From: Candidatus Obscuribacterales bacterium
GTDB lineage: Bacteria > Cyanobacteriota > Vampirovibrionia > Obscuribacterales > Obscuribacteraceae
Direction: 5' to 3'
Assembly: GCA_038231015.1 (NCBI GenBank)
Contig: JBBRMD010000014.1
Span: 31,776 to 95,775 of the forward strand
DNA: 64,000 bases
Shown: positions 51,558-64,000 of the stretch, piece by piece
Layout: every line of letters starts with the position of its first letter
Position numbering within the stretch: position 1 is the first letter of the stretch
The notes under the pieces: generated by a model
The model's database searches: none
Told to the model about the DNA's origin: nothing
The model's input: the letters and a program-made list of their open reading frames with translations, nothing else
Program-made: the position numbers and the translations under genes

Positions 51558-53042
51558 GTGGCCCCGTTTGAGATCAGTCCCAAGTATACTTGTGAAATGA
51601 ATTGGTCGCGAATTCCAATATTTAGTATTTCAATAATGGCTGTAGTAGTTTTTCTTCTGTTGCCTTTTTTGACCATGGAATTTCTAAATATCAAATTGAA
51701 GCACAATCATGTTGTACCTAGCGCAGAAGCTGGAGACTTGGTTATTGTCGAATCAGGTCTGCCATCTCGGCCTCAGCAATCTGCCGCCGAATTGAAAGCG
51801 CGATTTTTAGAACAGAAACTTATTGACAGGTCTAATCAAAAGATTCTACTAGAAGAGAATGCCCAGAGGCTCAAGCAGATATTGAAAGAAAGTGAGACCT
51901 CTTTTGTAGAAATCAAACAGCGAAAGTCGGTTGATCCGATTTCGTTTATTAAAGAGGCCTCAGAGCGTGGCAGCATGTATTTACAGATAGGTGATAAGCA
52001 GACGGCCTATCATTTATACAAAGAGGCCGTACAATCTTTGAGAGGCACTGGGTCTGCCATTGACACAGCACAGTTTGAAGATCCATTGTGGCAATTTCTT
52101 TTGGAGTATCTTAAGACTGTTGAATCGAAAGAGGCAGAAAGAGATGCTATCGACCGTTTACTGAATGCTTCAGATAGAAAACAATCGATTCCTTATATTG
52201 GCGGTTCATTTCGAATTGCAGACTATTTTAAAACTGTCGGTCGCCAACAAGAGGCTGTAGACTTCTTAATTAGGATAGTTGGATTGGTGCTTAAAAACCG
52301 CCCGGAAGACGTGGATTCATTAACGGCTACTAGCATAGAGCTTGAATGTATAAGTGTAGGACTGAAACAGCAGGGGCAGCTGGAAAAAGTAGATCGTGAA
52401 ATTTTGGCGGCAACAGAAAAGTATCATCCTAATCAGGGTGCTTCTGTCATTGATCCGCTGGCGCGTTTGAGTGCATTCTGCATCAAGAACAACCAGCAAA
52501 AAGAAGGTGATCTCTTGGCTGAAAAAGCCTTGATACTTGCCAAAGAAGATACGGTCACGTGCCTTTTAGATAAATTGGCAGTAATTGCAGACTCTTACAC
52601 AGGTTCAGGCAAATTAGATAAGGCCGAGCACCTTCTGAGAGAAGCCGCCGAAATAAAATCTAAGCACTTCAAGACTGTCGAGCTGAGCTATTTAAACAAT
52701 TCATATCGTGAGTTGAAGGCCAAGTTTGAAGAGCGCGGTCAATGGACTTCTGCAGAATCACTGTTAGAGCAATTCAAGCTTGCGCAAGTACCAGGTAAGT
52801 ACGGCGAGATGTGCGTGTTGCAGGATCTCTTTTTTGGTAATTTGGACGAAGCTGGCCGCCTTCAAAGCCTTGTTAAAGGCACCGAAGCACAAAATTCTCT
52901 GAAGAAGGCTGATGACGCCTACCTTAAGGTCAAAGAGTATTTCGCAAAGGAGCAGCAGGCGTCTGCCGTGCAAGACTGGTTTAAGACGCGACAAAATCGC
53001 CTAAAGACACTCGGATTGAACGACAATCTTAACGGTCAATAA
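51558..53042 (+). CDS. membrane-anchored helical-repeat (TPR-like) hypothetical protein
   Basis: TM (IPIFSISIMAVVVFLLLPFL), then helical repeats. The start may be GTG 51558 or ATG 51598. Confidence 0.5.
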   Translation: MAPFEISPKYTCEMNWSRIPIFSISIMAVVVFLLLPFLTMEFLNIKLKHNHVVPSAEAGDLVIVESGLPSRPQQSAAELKARFLEQKLIDRSNQKILLEENAQRLKQILKESETSFVEIKQRKSVDPISFIKEASERGSMYLQIGDKQTAYHLYKEAVQSLRGTGSAIDTAQFEDPLWQFLLEYLKTVESKEAERDAIDRLLNASDRKQSIPYIGGSFRIADYFKTVGRQQEAVDFLIRIVGLVLKNRPEDVDSLTATSIELECISVGLKQQGQLEKVDREILAATEKYHPNQGASVIDPLARLSAFCIKNNQQKEGDLLAEKALILAKEDTVTCLLDKLAVIADSYTGSGKLDKAEHLLREAAEIKSKHFKTVELSYLNNSYRELKAKFEERGQWTSAESLLEQFKLAQVPGKYGEMCVLQDLFFGNLDEAGRLQSLVKGTEAQNSLKKADDAYLKVKEYFAKEQQASAVQDWFKTRQNRLKTLGLNDNLNGQ

Positions 53043-53159
53043 GTGAATCATATTATTCAGTAATCTTATCGACTGTCTCTGCGTCAATTGGAGGCCACTA
53101 TCATGTATCTTTGCCAAAGCCCTCGGCTTGGTTAAATGTAACCAAAACAAGAATTACTG

Positions 53160-53188
53160 TTGACATAGTCTGAGCTGACCTGTAATGT
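53160..53188 (+). promoter_or_regulatory. sigma70-like promoter for the argC leader (TTGACA, 17 nt, TAATGT)
   Basis: A perfect -35 hexamer at 53160-53165, a 17-nt spacer, and a -10 hexamer TAATGT at 53183-53188. It lies 118 nt downstream of the previous gene stop. Confidence 0.55.
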
Positions 53189-53218
53189 CGGTAATAGCTA
53201 AAAGGTGCTCCAACCAAC

Positions 53219-53290
53219 ATGACCTTGTTCAATATCAGCTCTAACAGCCGACGCCGCGAATTCTTTGAGAACTCGGGGCAGATAACGTAG
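53219..53290 (+). CDS. candidate arginine leader peptide (23 aa, MTLFNISSNSRRREFFENSGQIT)
   Basis: ATG preceded by AAGGTG. Three consecutive Arg codons CGA-CGC-CGC at 53249-53257. The stop at 53288-53290 lies 3 nt past the 5' strand of the antiterminator. Confidence 0.55.
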   Translation: MTLFNISSNSRRREFFENSGQIT

Positions 53291-53332
53291 CTGATTTTTA
53301 GCACTATTATCGTAATTGTCTCCCCGGGTTTT
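53268..53332 (+). promoter_or_regulatory. candidate antiterminator helix competing with the argC-leader terminator
   Basis: AGAACTCGGGGCAGATAA (53268-53285) pairs with TTGTCTCCCCGGGTTTT (53316-53332). By hand this gives 13 Watson-Crick pairs, 3 G-U pairs and 1 bulged C. It fully sequesters the terminator 5' arm (53321-53328). Confidence 0.5.
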
Positions 53333-53352
53333 ATTACCCGGGGATTTTTTTT
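53321..53352 (+). terminator. intrinsic terminator 12 nt upstream of the argC ATG (attenuator terminator)
   Basis: TCCCCGGG (53321-28) pairs with CCCGGGGA (53337-44), a perfect 8 bp with an 8-nt loop, followed by T8 (53345-53352). Confidence 0.75.
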
Positions 53353-53364
53353 AGGGAAATTATC

Positions 53365-54498
53365 ATGGCAGCGCAAATTGAACAATTGAAGGCAGGGGCA
53401 AGTTCTAGCAATAAAGAGGCAAAGACTTCCGAAAAGATTGCAATAAAGAAAGTAGCTGTGGTCGGCGCTACTGGCTACACCGGGCAAGAGTTGGTGCGTC
53501 TATTGCTGCAGCATGACATGGCCGAGATACACTCAGCGGTATCTCAGAGCAGCGACGGAAAGAAATTCGCTTCAGTTTATCCAGGTCTGCAAAAGCACAC
53601 CGATCTTGTTTGCACGAGCGAAGATTTAGAGTCGCTCGCAGAGCAAGTCGATTTACTGTTTCTCGCTTTGCCTCACGGTAATGCTGCCGGTAAAGTGACT
53701 AAGAGCATTCTGGCAAAGTGTAAGGTGATCGATTTAGGTGCTGATTTTCGCTTGAAGTCAGCGGCCGACTATGAAACCTGGTACAAATTCAAGCACCCGC
53801 AGCCAGAACTGCTCAACCAAGCCGTCTACGGCTTACCTGAGCTCAATCGTAAGGCTATAAGCCAGGCTAGCCTTGTTGCTAATCCGGGATGTTATGCCAC
53901 TTGCTCGATACTGACGTTGGCACCACTTTTAGAGGCCGGCATAATAGATCCGACTACTATTATCATAGACGCTAAGTCAGGTATCTCAGGTGCCGGAAGG
54001 GCCGCAAACTTAGGAACGCATTTTAATGAATGTAATGAGTCTATAAAAGCCTACGGGGTGGCCTGCCACAGGCATACTCCAGAGATAGAAGAACAGCTTG
54101 CCGCTTTCAGTAAAACTTCTTTTTGTACATCGTTTACACCGCATTTGGTGCCAATGAATCGTGGCATTCTTGTCACTGCTTACGCATCGCTTATAAGTAA
54201 TATATCAAAACAAGAGCTATATAATTTATATAGTAAATTCTATGAAAATGAGCCATTCATCAGGCTTTTCTCTCCTGACGACGACGGATATACAATGCCT
54301 GAAACACGCTTTGTCAAAGGAGCAAACTTCTGCGATATCGGTATGGCAGTTGATGAGAGAAGCAATCGTGTGATTGCCATCGGTGCTTTAGATAACCTGG
54401 TGAAAGGCGCAGCCGGACAAGCTATACAAAACATGAATCTCCTCTTCGGTTGGCCTGAAACTAGCGGCTTAAAACAATCAGCAATTTTTCCGGCTTGA
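53365..54498 (+). CDS. argC: N-acetyl-gamma-glutamyl-phosphate reductase
   Basis: KVAVVGATGYTGQELVRLL Rossmann start and the active-site region ANPGCYATC. It has an approximately 28-aa N-terminal extension relative to the usual start of this family. SD AGGGA lies upstream. Confidence 0.9.
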   Translation: MAAQIEQLKAGASSSNKEAKTSEKIAIKKVAVVGATGYTGQELVRLLLQHDMAEIHSAVSQSSDGKKFASVYPGLQKHTDLVCTSEDLESLAEQVDLLFLALPHGNAAGKVTKSILAKCKVIDLGADFRLKSAADYETWYKFKHPQPELLNQAVYGLPELNRKAISQASLVANPGCYATCSILTLAPLLEAGIIDPTTIIIDAKSGISGAGRAANLGTHFNECNESIKAYGVACHRHTPEIEEQLAAFSKTSFCTSFTPHLVPMNRGILVTAYASLISNISKQELYNLYSKFYENEPFIRLFSPDDDGYTMPETRFVKGANFCDIGMAVDERSNRVIAIGALDNLVKGAAGQAIQNMNLLFGWPETSGLKQSAIFPA

Positions 54499-54515
54499 TA
54501 TTTTTTCAAAATTTG

Positions 54516-54544
54516 TTGACATTGGTGCGAAACGATCGTAACCT
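54516..54544 (+). promoter_or_regulatory. sigma70-like promoter for the argJ leader (TTGACA, 17 nt, TAACCT)
   Basis: A perfect -35 at 54516-54521, a 17-nt spacer, and a TAnnnT-type -10 at 54539-54544. It lies 18 nt after the argC stop. Confidence 0.45.
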
Positions 54545-54571
54545 TTCCCAAAGTTAGTGAGGCAATTTTCA

Positions 54572-54697
54572 ATGTTCGGTTCCAGCAACAATAACCATGT
54601 AAGTATCCACGTAAGCAGCTCTGTAAGCGGCCCGGTAAGTAACCGAAGTGACTTGCGACGCCGCCTAGCGCGCTCGGGCTTTATTTGGTTGTGTTGA
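54572..54697 (+). CDS. candidate arginine leader peptide 2 (41 aa, ...SNRSDLRRRLARSGFIWLC)
   Basis: ATG preceded by GTGAGG. It carries the same CGA-CGC-CGC triplet run (54656-54664) plus two further Arg codons nearby. It is followed by a terminator. Confidence 0.45.
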   Translation: MFGSSNNNHVSIHVSSSVSGPVSNRSDLRRRLARSGFIWLC

Positions 54698-54719
54698 TTT
54701 GATCAACAACTAAATTTTT

Positions 54720-54758
54720 ATCCCTGAGTGCAAGGCAAGCATTCAGGGATTTTTTTTT
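54720..54758 (+). terminator. intrinsic terminator between argC and argJ (attenuator terminator and/or argC terminator)
   Basis: ATCCCTGA (54720-27) pairs with TCAGGGAT (54743-50), a perfect 8 bp, extendable by GTGC/GCAT. It is followed by T8 (54751-54758), a run of nine T counting the last stem base. Confidence 0.75.
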
Positions 54759-54802
54759 GCACGTTTTTGCCCATTGATACAGAATAATCGGGAGACACCA
54801 AG

Positions 54803-56170
54803 TTGAATTCAATAGCCAGATACCAATCGAATCGCAATGTCGCGGGTACACCAGTTACAGCGACTCCAGCAGCTAATGCCACTACAGCCTTAGCTGCAGA
54901 GAGCCAGGGTCTGAAAGCGAACGCAAGCGCGGTCATTGCTACGGTAGAAGTAGTTGGTTGCACCGGCGGTGTCACCAGCCCCAAAGGCTTTATGGCTGCT
55001 GGCGCTCACATTGGCGTCAAACGCAAGCGCAAAGATCTCTCATTGATCTGGAGTGATGTGCCAGCTCACCTGGCAGCTGCTTTTACTACAAATGTCATGA
55101 GAGCGGCACCGATTCTGTGGAATGAAAAGGTGGTGGCCACCGGTAAGCCTGTACGTGGAATCGTCATCAACAGCGGTAATGCTAATGCCTGCACTGGCGA
55201 GCTTGGCATTATAAATGCCGAAGCCATGGCCGCGACTTATGCCGAGAGCATGGGCGTTAGTAAAGAGGAAGTGATCATCGCTTCTACTGGAGTGATTGGC
55301 GTGCAACTGCCAATCCAGCTGATCAAGCAAGGCATCGTGAGCACCTGCCATGATTTGGCTGCGTCGCTAGAAGCAGGACTAAGTGCAGCTCAGGCGATCA
55401 TGACCACTGATACCTATGTCAAGCAAGCTTCAATAGTATTCGAAGTAGGCAGTAAGAAAGTCACCATCGGTGCCATGGCCAAGGGCAGCGGCATGATTCA
55501 TCCAAATATGGCTACCATGCTCAGTTTCCTTACAACTGATCTAAATATTTCTCCGGCACTTCTCAACAAGGCCCTGAAAGAAAGTACAGCCGAAACATAC
55601 AATATGATTAGTGTTGACGGTGATACCAGTACCAATGACATGGTCGCTATTCTAGCCAACGGCAAGGCTGGAAACACCCTTATCGACAGCGAAGACAAAG
55701 ATTATTTCGCCTTCTGTCAGGCACTCAAGGCCATTAATACAGACCTGGCGAAAGCAATTGTGCGAGACGGAGAAGGTGCCACTAAATTTCTAGAAGTGCA
55801 AGTCAAGCAGGCAGGCAGTATCGAAGAGGCACGCAAACTGGGCCGTTCTATTGTTTCTTCTAGCTTGGTCAAAACAGCCTTCTTTGGTGAAGACGCCAAC
55901 TGGGGCCGGATCATTTGCGCCATGGGCTATAGCGGCGTTACGTTCAAACCAGAAACTGTCTCAATTGCCATAGAAAGTTCGGCTGGCAGACTTGAACTGA
56001 TGCACGACGGTGAGCCGGCTGTCGTCAACGAGATTCTTGCCAAAGCTGTTTTGGCAGAGAAAGACATCACGATCCACATCAACATGAAAGAAGGCTTGAG
56101 TGAGGCAACCGCCTGGGGCTGCGACCTCAGCTATGAGTATGTGCGCATCAATGGCTCTTACAGAACGTAG
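54803..56170 (+). CDS. argJ: bifunctional glutamate N-acetyltransferase / amino-acid acetyltransferase (ornithine acetyltransferase)
   Basis: GGVTSPKGFMAAGAHIG and the autoprocessing-site context HPNMATMLSFLTTD. TTG start with GGGAGA 8 nt upstream. There is no other in-frame start before the conserved core, so the approximately 45-aa T/A-rich extension appears real. Confidence 0.9.
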   Translation: MNSIARYQSNRNVAGTPVTATPAANATTALAAESQGLKANASAVIATVEVVGCTGGVTSPKGFMAAGAHIGVKRKRKDLSLIWSDVPAHLAAAFTTNVMRAAPILWNEKVVATGKPVRGIVINSGNANACTGELGIINAEAMAATYAESMGVSKEEVIIASTGVIGVQLPIQLIKQGIVSTCHDLAASLEAGLSAAQAIMTTDTYVKQASIVFEVGSKKVTIGAMAKGSGMIHPNMATMLSFLTTDLNISPALLNKALKESTAETYNMISVDGDTSTNDMVAILANGKAGNTLIDSEDKDYFAFCQALKAINTDLAKAIVRDGEGATKFLEVQVKQAGSIEEARKLGRSIVSSSLVKTAFFGEDANWGRIICAMGYSGVTFKPETVSIAIESSAGRLELMHDGEPAVVNEILAKAVLAEKDITIHINMKEGLSEATAWGCDLSYEYVRINGSYRT

Positions 56171-58396: not shown

Positions 58397-58885
58397 ATGA
58401 TTTCCGCCCGTTTGCTTGGAGTTTTTGTCAACTTATTGATTGCTATGACTCCAACTTTGCTGGCGCCTCCTAGAGTCAGCGCTCACTCACCCCTGCACTC
58501 GCTGATTGCTGACTATGTTCCTTGGGGTGTAGATGAAGACGAGCTTATAGGATTGACCAAGGCCGAGATTGCCAATAAATTCAAAGATACATTGGGCTTT
58601 GACCAAGTAGAATCTAGAGTTTTTTTCGTCGACTATAATCGTCCAGGCTTCGGCCGCCCAGGTTTTGTTGTCACCTTCGCCGACGGCAAAATAGTAGCAA
58701 TCAAACGTCTTTTCATCGACGGTGGTGGTTGCAGAATTGTCGGACCCATTTTCAAAACCAAGAAAGATGCCTTGAACTTCGTCATTGGGAGTTTGTCAAA
58801 GCAAGCCGAGCGCAGCCCTAAAGACGAAGGTCGATTGAAAGACGCCCGCAAGCGATTGGCCAACTTAGATAGCACCGCCAAGTAG
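58397..58885 (+). CDS. exported hypothetical protein (162 aa)
   Basis: Signal peptide (LLGVFVNLLIAMTPTLLAPPRVSA) and AAGGAGCA upstream. No domain recognised. Confidence 0.45.
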   Translation: MISARLLGVFVNLLIAMTPTLLAPPRVSAHSPLHSLIADYVPWGVDEDELIGLTKAEIANKFKDTLGFDQVESRVFFVDYNRPGFGRPGFVVTFADGKIVAIKRLFIDGGGCRIVGPIFKTKKDALNFVIGSLSKQAERSPKDEGRLKDARKRLANLDSTAK

Positions 58886-63063: not shown

Positions 63064-64000
63064 TTAGGCTCTTGGGTGAGTGTTCATATAGACCCGTCTC
63101 AAGCGGTCCAAACTTACATGGGTGTAAATTTGGGTGGTGTTGATAGTGGTGTGACCTAATAGATCTTGTACTACACGCAAATCGGCTCCACCTTCGAGTA
63201 GGTGAGTCGCAAACGTATGTCTCAAGGTGTGAGGGGTGATTGGTTTGTTGATACCAGCCTTGAGGGCATACTTCATGACGATACGGTGGACAGATCTTGA
63301 CGACAGGCGAGTTGCTTGGCGGCTAACAAAGAGAGGATGTTCGGCTTGTGGTGTGCGACCTTCAGCCAACTTAGTCCAGGTTTCGCTGAGATATTTCTTC
63401 AGCCAGTTGTGAGCGCTTTGATTGAGCAATACAACTCTTTCTTTGCCGCCCTTACCGAGAACCCGCATTTCCATGCCTTCTTGGTTATAGTCTTGCACTC
63501 TGAGGCCGCATAGTTCGCTGACGCGCATGCCGGTAGCGTAAAGAACTTCCATTAAGGCACGGTCACGAGCACCTAATACAGAGTTGGTATCAGGTGACAT
63601 AAGTAAGCGCACGATTTCTTCTTTATCTAAACAGGCGGGCAGTCTACGAGTGAGTTTAGGCCCACGTACTTGCTTTGATGGATCTTCGTCGATCAGTTGC
63701 TCTCTTCTCAAGTAGCGATAGAAAGATCTGATTGCTGAGATTTTACGAGCAACAGTTGGTCTTGAATATTGTTCTTGAATTTGTCTGATGTAAGCGCGCA
63801 GACCTTCAGCTTCTAACCAACCAGAAGTTGAGCCAGAAGCAGTTGCAGAGCTAGTTCCAGAAACAGTCCCAGAACTATTTGTTGAAGCTGATGCAGTTTG
63901 CTCTGTTAAAGGAGCGGTTGGCATCGAGCCACTACCGGTAGTTGTGTTAACTGTTGATTCAACTGACGTATGTCCGTTGTAAGAATTCTGTTGGGCAACA
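63064..64000 (-). CDS. XerC/XerD-type tyrosine recombinase, N-terminus beyond window edge; S/T/G-rich insertion in the N-terminal domain
   Basis: C-terminal catalytic blocks ATGMRVSEL, HTLRHTFATHLL, LLGHTTINTTQIYTHV. The frame stays open from the ATG at 63924 to nt 64000 (...VAQQNSYNGHTSVESTVNTTTGSGS-MPTAPL...), and only the last helix of the core-binding domain is present after 63924. The true start is therefore probably upstream of the window. Confidence 0.85.
   Translation of the reverse strand, partial: VAQQNSYNGHTSVESTVNTTTGSGSMPTAPLTEQTASASTNSSGTVSGTSSATASGSTSGWLEAEGLRAYIRQIQEQYSRPTVARKISAIRSFYRYLRREQLIDEDPSKQVRGPKLTRRLPACLDKEEIVRLLMSPDTNSVLGARDRALMEVLYATGMRVSELCGLRVQDYNQEGMEMRVLGKGGKERVVLLNQSAHNWLKKYLSETWTKLAEGRTPQAEHPLFVSRQATRLSSRSVHRIVMKYALKAGINKPITPHTLRHTFATHLLEGGADLRVVQDLLGHTTINTTQIYTHVSLDRLRRVYMNTHPRA

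Follow-up and report, generated by a model that had tools for sequence, protein, structure and literature searches.

The 304-nt spacer between argC and argJ in a 64-kb stretch of DNA (the window, which below always means the whole stretch of 64,000 nucleotides that was analysed) is most likely a transcription attenuator of the leader-peptide, ribosome-mediated type with charged tRNA-Arg as its signal, and a paralog of a leader in front of argC. The DNA comes from a relative of the cyanobacteria that does not photosynthesize (Melainabacteria, Obscuribacterales-like), and argJ, argB and argD lie downstream of the spacer. The support for the attenuator is comparative and computational throughout, and the organisms are known only as metagenome-assembled genomes (MAGs). 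A sequence-only reading of the window had proposed that a second Arg-codon attenuator with a promoter of its own precedes argJ, so that argC and argJBD would be attenuated as separate units, and the recurrence of the layout, the conservation of the promoter hexamers and the covariation of the helices now support that proposal.

Elements of the argJ leader

The spacer sequence shows directly both the elements and where the Arg codons lie with respect to the antiterminator strand. They are, from 5' to 3':

54516-54544 (+), candidate promoter P2: -35 TTGACA at 54516-21, a 17-nt spacer and -10 TAACCT at 54539-44 (sequence and conservation)
54559-54562 (+), Shine-Dalgarno (SD) sequence GAGG, 9 nt 5' of the leader ATG (sequence)
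54572-54697 (+), leader open reading frame (ORF) of 41 codons plus TGA (54695-97), peptide MFGSSNNNHVSIHVSSSVSGPVSNRSDLRRRLARSGFIWLC followed by the stop (ORF call, ATG at 54572)
54641-54664 (+), putative regulatory Arg codons: CGA at 54641-43 and CGA-CGC-CGC at 54656-64 (sequence; relatives have RR-xx-RRR)
54670-54678 (+), antiterminator 5' strand B, GCGCTCGGG, with its partner at 54723-31 (duplex, covariation, RNAalifold)
54683-54715 (+), middle hairpin M, enclosing the leader stop and followed by U5 (fold of -9.3 kcal/mol)
54720-54758 (+), intrinsic terminator: 5' arm C at 54720-31, loop, 3' arm D at 54739-50 and U-run to 54758 (12 pairs, T-run)
54790-54805 (+), argJ ribosome-binding site (RBS) GGGAGA at 54790-95 and TTG start (sequence)

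The promoter hexamers, SD, 41-codon ORF, CGA-CGC-CGC run, hairpin and T-run all lie where the sequence-only reading had placed them. It had also counted five Arg in 12 residues; the five are indeed clustered, as an RRR run and two more Arg, and their span is 10 residues. The extension of the hairpin to about 12 bp was likewise found (12 pairs, 54720-31 with 54739-50, including one G-U), and the hairpin has an energy of -19.2 kcal/mol. T54750 is both the last stem pair and the first of nine T (54750-58). The leader stop lies 17 nt past strand B, within a separate hairpin. A small hairpin that had been described around the stop, at 54692-54708, does exist, as the inner part of the 54683-54715 hairpin.

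The N-terminal half of the leader ORF carries GTAAG four times at an exact 12-nt period (54599-54646, Val-Ser codons), and TRF reports 54611-54639 within it (period 12, 2.4 copies). The repeat is missing from all relatives and is therefore a window-specific in-frame expansion; for the same reason, its interpretation as a protein-binding array was rejected.

Two mutually exclusive helices

Strand B GCGCTCGGG (54670-78) pairs with CCTGAGTGC (54723-31) in the 5' arm of the terminator through 9 contiguous bp, two of them G·U. The antiterminator candidate of the sequence-only reading is this same element, and it is conserved; the bulge then assigned to it is not needed. The B:C duplex of the window has an energy of -15.5 kcal/mol, which is reached by four of 500 shuffles. 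Eleven distinct argJ leaders, the window's and ten from relatives, were compared. Their B:C energies lie between -15.5 and -22.8 kcal/mol, values that 0-4 of 500 dinucleotide shuffles attain, and in 11 of 11 no other part of the leader pairs better with the terminator 5' arm than strand B does. The interval from B to C is 41-48 nt (32 in L003).

Both helices, which exclude each other, are marked by covariation. For the antiterminator, 84.6% of cells are paired in register vs. no more than 52% with the partner displaced by 1-3 columns. For the terminator, 88.6% of cells are paired, and four pairs have compensatory double changes; the terminators of L001 and L003 are imperfect. At matching positions, L001 differs in all three strands (T for C in B, A for G in C, T for C in D), with a U-G intermediate in L169 at the position changed in L001. 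L003 has GGA/TCC where other leaders have GCG/TGC, and L170 has GTG/TAA. RNAalifold, run with no structure given on transcripts ending just past the 5' arm, returned the B:C helix only (9 pairs, two with double changes).

In 18 of the 18 leaders folded, the region between B and the terminator is predicted to form a hairpin, which takes in the stop in most of them; in L172 and L003 the leader stop lies before it. This middle hairpin might act as a pause signal, or assist the long-range helix by making it shorter. Leaders of the window clade have U5-U6 directly after it, as a weak terminator or pause site would. Until the terminator arm emerges, the prediction is that B pairs with upstream leader sequence (p 0.66-1.0), a pairing that does not outcompete B:C at equilibrium. 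The upstream partner consists of the Arg codons themselves in argC-type leaders and several argJ types, and of the window-specific GTAAG repeat in the argJ leader of the window.

Conservation in relatives

Relatives were taken from a protein search (ArgJ 60-88% identical), and the contigs of eleven were fetched (L161-L173). The top ArgJ matches in species-representative genomes were the Melainabacteria/Obscuribacteraceae MAGs L001 (68%) and L003 (60%). An ArgJ scan of metagenome contigs gave at most 57% identity among the matches listed and carries no information on the leader. All examined relatives whose ArgJ is 70% identical or more have the whole layout before argJ, as do two of the four more distant relatives, L172 (63%) and L003 (60%). 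L171 (66%) and L173 (60%) have no leader ORF and no hairpin in the argC-argJ spacer, so the internal attenuator is not universal in the group. The gene order in these two is argH-argC-argJ with an argC-argJ spacer of 45-93 nt (L171 2408-2500, L173 2456-2500), and the DNA upstream of argH is outside the fetched region.

Elements kept in the eleven leaders are SD and ATG, Arg run, stop, strand B, middle hairpin and terminator. The SD is GTGAGGCA in close relatives, and AAGGAAA or CAGGA in distant ones. The orthologous leader ORFs of the ten relatives have 22-37 codons and encode the following peptides:

L161-L163: MFASGATHHTNNHTDSRRSSRRRLARSGLVWLC
L164, L165: MFASDSKNHINNHSIGHSSSRRNSRRRLLRSGFIWLC
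L166: MFTLSANNHISSSRRFSRRRLSRSGFIWLC
L167: MFASSAKQNSNSRRFPRRRLARSGLIRLC
L168: MSFNSTLNRHLSRRSRTLRSGIGLWC
L169: MQFSKSLRHNRRFPRRRANALGDCSHTLI
L170: MFNLDSNNSRPSSFRRSILCSGVFWLC
L001: MQFSKSLTHNRRFPRRANALGDCSHLLI
L172: MFPSQVTSNSRRPRRRRTVRSG
L003: MKSVSYIANTNRRSRRVRMKDSGQ

In its N-terminal half the peptide varies freely, with indels in multiples of three bases only, and the Arg codons are retained, in most cases as RR-xx-RRR. The stop codon is near the conserved motif GTTGATTTA, except in L172 and L003, where it comes earlier, directly behind strand B. The L001/L169 clade and the window clade differ in their reading frame with respect to the motifs GCGCTYGGGG and GTTGATTTA. Despite this difference, the Arg codons are in frame with the ATG and the stop (TGA or TAA) falls within the same motif, which indicates selection on the Arg codons and the RNA elements, and not on the peptide.

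The fungal arginine attenuator peptide, encoded by an upstream ORF of arg-2/CPA1, senses free arginine via a conserved nascent peptide and represses translation at high arginine. It resembles the argJ leader in that an upstream ORF regulates an arginine-pathway gene by arginine, and differs in being eukaryotic and in having neither an Arg-codon run nor a terminator. Arrest of the ribosome by a nascent peptide that senses free arginine, as in this system, SpeFL or TnaC, would agree with a short Arg-related ORF upstream of arginine genes. It is extremely improbable here, because the peptide is not conserved beyond the Arg run and its C-terminal part is in different frames by clade, and because arrest upstream of B at high arginine would turn a biosynthetic operon on, which is the wrong logic.

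The helices could also be switched at the B-to-M region by a factor in trans or a ligand (RNA-binding protein or riboswitch), translation being secondary. The nucleotides of B and GTTGATTTA are kept regardless of reading frame, and the middle hairpin is without an assigned role, as such a switch would allow. Yet upstream of B only the Arg codons, SD and ATG are kept, which is the signature of a translated sensor and not of an aptamer, and the B-C interval holds only about 40 nt and a simple hairpin. No Rfam family is found in the spacer at gathering score, its weak matches being terminator-like small RNA (sRNA) models, and this explanation is very unlikely. The sole match in the whole window at Rfam gathering thresholds is a tRNA, with no leader family (His_leader, Trp_leader, Leu_leader, Thr_leader and others). 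In 52900-55000, a permissive Rfam search gave only sub-threshold terminator-like sRNA matches, and the T-box covariance model gave no match even at E up to 10.

The leader is kept where argC is fused to argH (L167, L168) and where there is no argC upstream (L003, L172), and thus belongs to argJ and not to the end of argC. This bears on the simplest alternative, a plain argC terminator next to an ordinary argJ promoter, with the mini-ORF and its Arg codons incidental. A hairpin with a U-run about 220 nt 3' of the argC stop would end argC transcripts in any case, and the terminator wins at equilibrium in the window. However, P2 is upstream of the terminator, so that its transcripts would end before argJ unless termination is relieved. 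In addition, the Arg run, ORF, SD and antiterminator are kept with covariation in 11 leaders, even without argC upstream, and L171 and L173, the relatives with no ORF, have no hairpin either. The pattern that the sequence-only reading had named as contrary to attenuation, a hairpin kept after loss of the mini-ORF or its Arg codons, was not seen, and a plain terminator is highly improbable.

Across ten aligned spacers, the -35 has an invariant TTGAC and the -10 an invariant A, the -10 is TAnnnT in 10 of 10, and the 17-nt spacing is kept with variable spacer sequence. Working sigma-70-type promoters usually show this pattern, and P2 is presumably used.

Proposed course of attenuation

In the proposed attenuator, transcription would begin at its own promoter (at about 54551) or come through from argC, and a ribosome would translate the 41-codon leader. 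If Arg-tRNA is in short supply, the ribosome would stall at the first Arg codons (CGA at 54641-43, CGA at 54656-58), leaving B (54670-78) free to pair with the emerging 5' arm (54723-31). The B:C helix would block the terminator hairpin, and RNA polymerase would continue into argJBD. When arginine is plentiful, the ribosome would pass over B toward the stop at 54695-97; the 5' arm would then pair with 54739-50 and transcription would end at the U-run at 54751-58. Transcripts from the first promoter would pass two attenuators in series, and argJBD would also have an attenuated promoter of its own. The hairpin would necessarily also end argC transcripts when arginine is plentiful. Stalling, its timing and the part played by the hairpin at the stop codon are proposed from the arrangement of the elements.

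The dependence on ribosome position was modeled by snapshot folds of 12 Obscuribacterales-type leaders, in which the RNA from the leading edge of the ribosome (at each codon) to the end of the 5' arm was folded, as it stands ahead of the synthesis of the 3' arm. Equilibrium folding of the full leader was rejected as a test of the switch, being wrong for a kinetic one, and the truncated snapshots were used in its place. In the 12 leaders, the 5' arm is sequestered (p 0.75-1.0) as long as the A site has not moved beyond the first Arg of the main run, and released once the ribosome is past the run (p usually <0.3, at most about 0.6). In the window, the sequestration p is 0.76 at R29, 0.59 at R30, 0.30 at R31 and <0.25 thereafter. 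The result holds with the leading edge 10, 13, or 16 nt past the A-site codon; a shift of 3 nt either way moves the switch point by one codon, which is still within the RRR run. A stall thus frees B in these model-dependent folds, as in leader-peptide attenuators, with a tight margin in the window. The sequence-only reading had cautioned about this tight geometry, and was right in degree, as the switch point of the window is within the RRR run. Leader 1, before argC, has a clearance of two to three codons more than the argJ leader of the window.

Several points weigh against attenuation of this kind. B is partly masked as soon as a ribosome stalls at the third Arg of RRR, and the RR pair that the relatives carry further upstream has decayed to a single CGA (54641-43) in the window. 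A ribosome on the stop codon leaves B uncovered, and the block of B:C there is a steric argument. In equilibrium folds of the full leader with the ribosome masked, the terminator has p 0.97 at any ribosome position (window); with a terminator dominant at equilibrium, any switch must be kinetic. A conserved 1:2 anti-antiterminator is not established for the argJ-type leaders, the predicted partner of B varying by lineage. Finally, the 3' half of the leader is nearly identical among close relatives, and the effective number of independent sequences is for this reason small (3.8).

The probably paralogous leader before argC

Leader 1 (53160-53352, +; sequence and model R1) has the same layout in front of argC:

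53160-88 (+), candidate promoter TTGACA-17-TAATGT
53219-53290 (+), leader 1 ORF, peptide MTLFNISSNSRRREFFENSGQIT followed by the stop
53249-57 (+), Arg run
53270-79 (+), antiterminator strand
53321-44 (+), terminator and U-run

The covariance model R1 was built from argJ-type leaders only, with no leader-1 sequence. R1 matches every argC-type leader over its full length, including leader 1 of the window (53246-53349, 32.9 bits, E 4.7e-6) and the argC-type leaders of L161-L166 (about 40 bits), and these full-length matches indicate that the two leader types are probably paralogs. Judged by sequence, duplication is the most likely origin of the argC and argJ leaders. The argC-type leader is kept in relatives (for example MFSFNITTTTNRRRREFLENSGSIA), and both leaders have the motif GYTGAT(A)TTTAGC-CAC after the stop. 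R1 found nothing comparable in about 150 argJ loci of Clostridia, Bacilli, Spirochaetes, and Gastranaerophilales. Outside Melainabacteria, the matches of a fold-based scan resembled noise, and none was confirmed by R1.

The 9-mer CGACGCCGC occurs twice in the 64 kb, once in each leader, with 0.34 occurrences expected, and is part of the homology of the two leaders. When both strands were scanned for a mini-ORF that has an Arg run and precedes a perfect-stem terminator, the two leaders were the sole intergenic sites, with one further match inside a real gene (recombinase-like). The shared 9-mer and the repeated layout thus go beyond chance expectation, as had been supposed from the sequence. 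A looser scan adds weak hairpins only (-8.6 to -12.5 kcal/mol vs. about -18.5 for the two leaders). The false positive of the Arg-run scan is the end of an ORF at 63064-63276 (-) with a tyrosine-recombinase-like C-terminal motif, HTLRHTFATHLL...LGH...Y.

In L004 (2690-2890, Gastranaerophilales) a promoter, an RRR mini-ORF (MNNKTQQFVIRRRLIRCESY) and a terminator stand before argC, and the argC-argJ gap is 10 nt. This leader was excluded from the family, since no antiterminator was detected (436 of 500 shuffles equalled or bettered its duplex of -3.0 kcal/mol) and R1 gave no match. It may be an independently evolved Arg leader.

Arginine codon usage

Arg makes up 12% of the codons of the argJ leader in the window vs. 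4.7% in the long ORFs of the window. The Arg content of the leaders is 7-32% (11-32% in argJ-type) vs. 4.7% in the proteins of the window. CGA, CGC, or CGT account for 80 of the 86 Arg codons in 18 leaders, and AGA and AGG are nearly missing from the Arg runs. CGA is fourfold enriched, with 38% of Arg codons in the leaders vs. 9% in the long ORFs of the window, and is usually the first codon of the run (leaders of the window, L001, L003, L161-L172). One tRNA-Arg(ICG) decodes CGA, CGC and CGT in most bacteria (PMC3711424).

Relation to known regulatory systems

The enterobacterial leaders trpL, hisL, leuL, thrL, pheL, and ilvL have, like the argJ leader, an SD-preceded short ORF with codons for the end product followed by an intrinsic terminator. 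They also have an antiterminator that uses the terminator 5' arm, and a dominant terminator that makes the switch kinetic. In the E. coli trp leader the terminator is dominant at equilibrium and the switch is kinetic. Pairing of regions 1 and 2 of trp has its likeness in leader 1, where the Arg codons are predicted to pair with the antiterminator strand. Unlike the enterobacterial leaders, the argJ leader would sense arginine, is found in Melainabacteria, has no Rfam match and has its stop 17 nt past B in a separate hairpin. The argJ-type leader is also without an established conserved 1:2 hairpin. E. coli pheM-pheST is a leader-peptide attenuator with its own promoter behind upstream genes of its cluster. 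It is alike in being located between genes of one cluster, with the downstream genes receiving both read-through and local transcripts; unlike the argJ leader, it controls a tRNA synthetase, senses Phe and is not known to form a paralogous serial pair.

Arginine biosynthesis is classically under the control of the ArgR repressor. ArgR/AhrC at ARG boxes resembles the proposed attenuators as feedback control of arg genes, and differs as a protein acting on a DNA operator. No ARG box (TNTGAATWWWWATTCANW, up to three mismatches) was found near 53100-53220 or 54500-54570, nor anywhere in 53000-54800, and the window has 7 ARG-box-like matches vs. 13.7 expected.

Arg-codon leaders are known from other pathways. 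In Salmonella speF orf34, Arg codons report arginine supply by ribosome speed and control polyamine synthesis via mRNA conformation and Rho (PMC6386406). The Arg-codon leader rbfL of S. aureus controls the biofilm regulator rbf via RBS occlusion (PMC13009471). Both are like the argJ leader in sensing arginine by consecutive or rare Arg codons, and unlike it in that they do not control arginine biosynthesis and have no terminator/antiterminator pair. They would be precedents for stalling in the argJ leader that acts mainly via Rho-dependent polarity, mRNA stability or argJ translation initiation, and not via the intrinsic terminator. Such a route is very unlikely, since the strong conserved hairpin with its U-run and the covarying antiterminator point to intrinsic termination, and the argJ RBS is about 40 nt past the terminator, outside the conserved helices.

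A literature search found no Arg-codon attenuator of bacterial arginine biosynthesis, with incomplete coverage of subscription journals, so that absence is not proof. It found no work on arginine regulation in this lineage either, within the same incomplete coverage, and a survey of bacterial attenuators does not mention arginine. A leader-peptide attenuator of arginine biosynthesis is new to the literature with probability rather than certainty. A wider proposal, for and against which the chances appear evenly balanced, is that these leaders form the first arginine-specific leader-peptide attenuator family. In it, the charging of tRNA-Arg, and not an ArgR-type repressor, would govern Obscuribacterales-type arginine biosynthesis through serial duplicated attenuators, their sensitivity tuned by the rare, slow CGA placed first in the run.

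A conserved Arg-codon attenuator would fill a gap among the textbook attenuation operons (trp, his, leu, thr, ilv, phe), and would show that the attenuation strategy arose in little-studied, uncultured, non-photosynthetic relatives of cyanobacteria. It would be a compact sensor of arginine or tRNA-Arg of about 190 nt and, with its paralog, a natural example of two attenuators in series in one gene cluster. The covariance model could be used to annotate arg regulons in Vampirovibrionia genomes.

The arg genes and their surroundings

ArgC, ArgJ, ArgB, and ArgD all score above cut-off against their own NCBIfam models. Genes 3' of the leader elements are those of arginine biosynthesis only, both in the window and in the gene tables of the relatives. 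The two genes that border the spacer are:

53365-54498 (+), argC, stop at 54496-98 (NCBIfam match)
54803-56170 (+), argJ, TTG start at 54803 (NCBIfam match)

NCBIfam gave no match for the ORFs that flank the arg cluster, 51558-53042 (+, 494 aa, upstream) and 58397-58885 (+, 162 aa, downstream). The argJ start site is kept across relatives as TTG, GTG, or ATG. ArgJ has an N-terminal extension of about 50 residues (54803-54960), low in complexity and rich in Ala, Thr and Asn, ahead of the region covered by the ArgJ model. The length of this extension differs among relatives, whose homologs have 406-477 aa.

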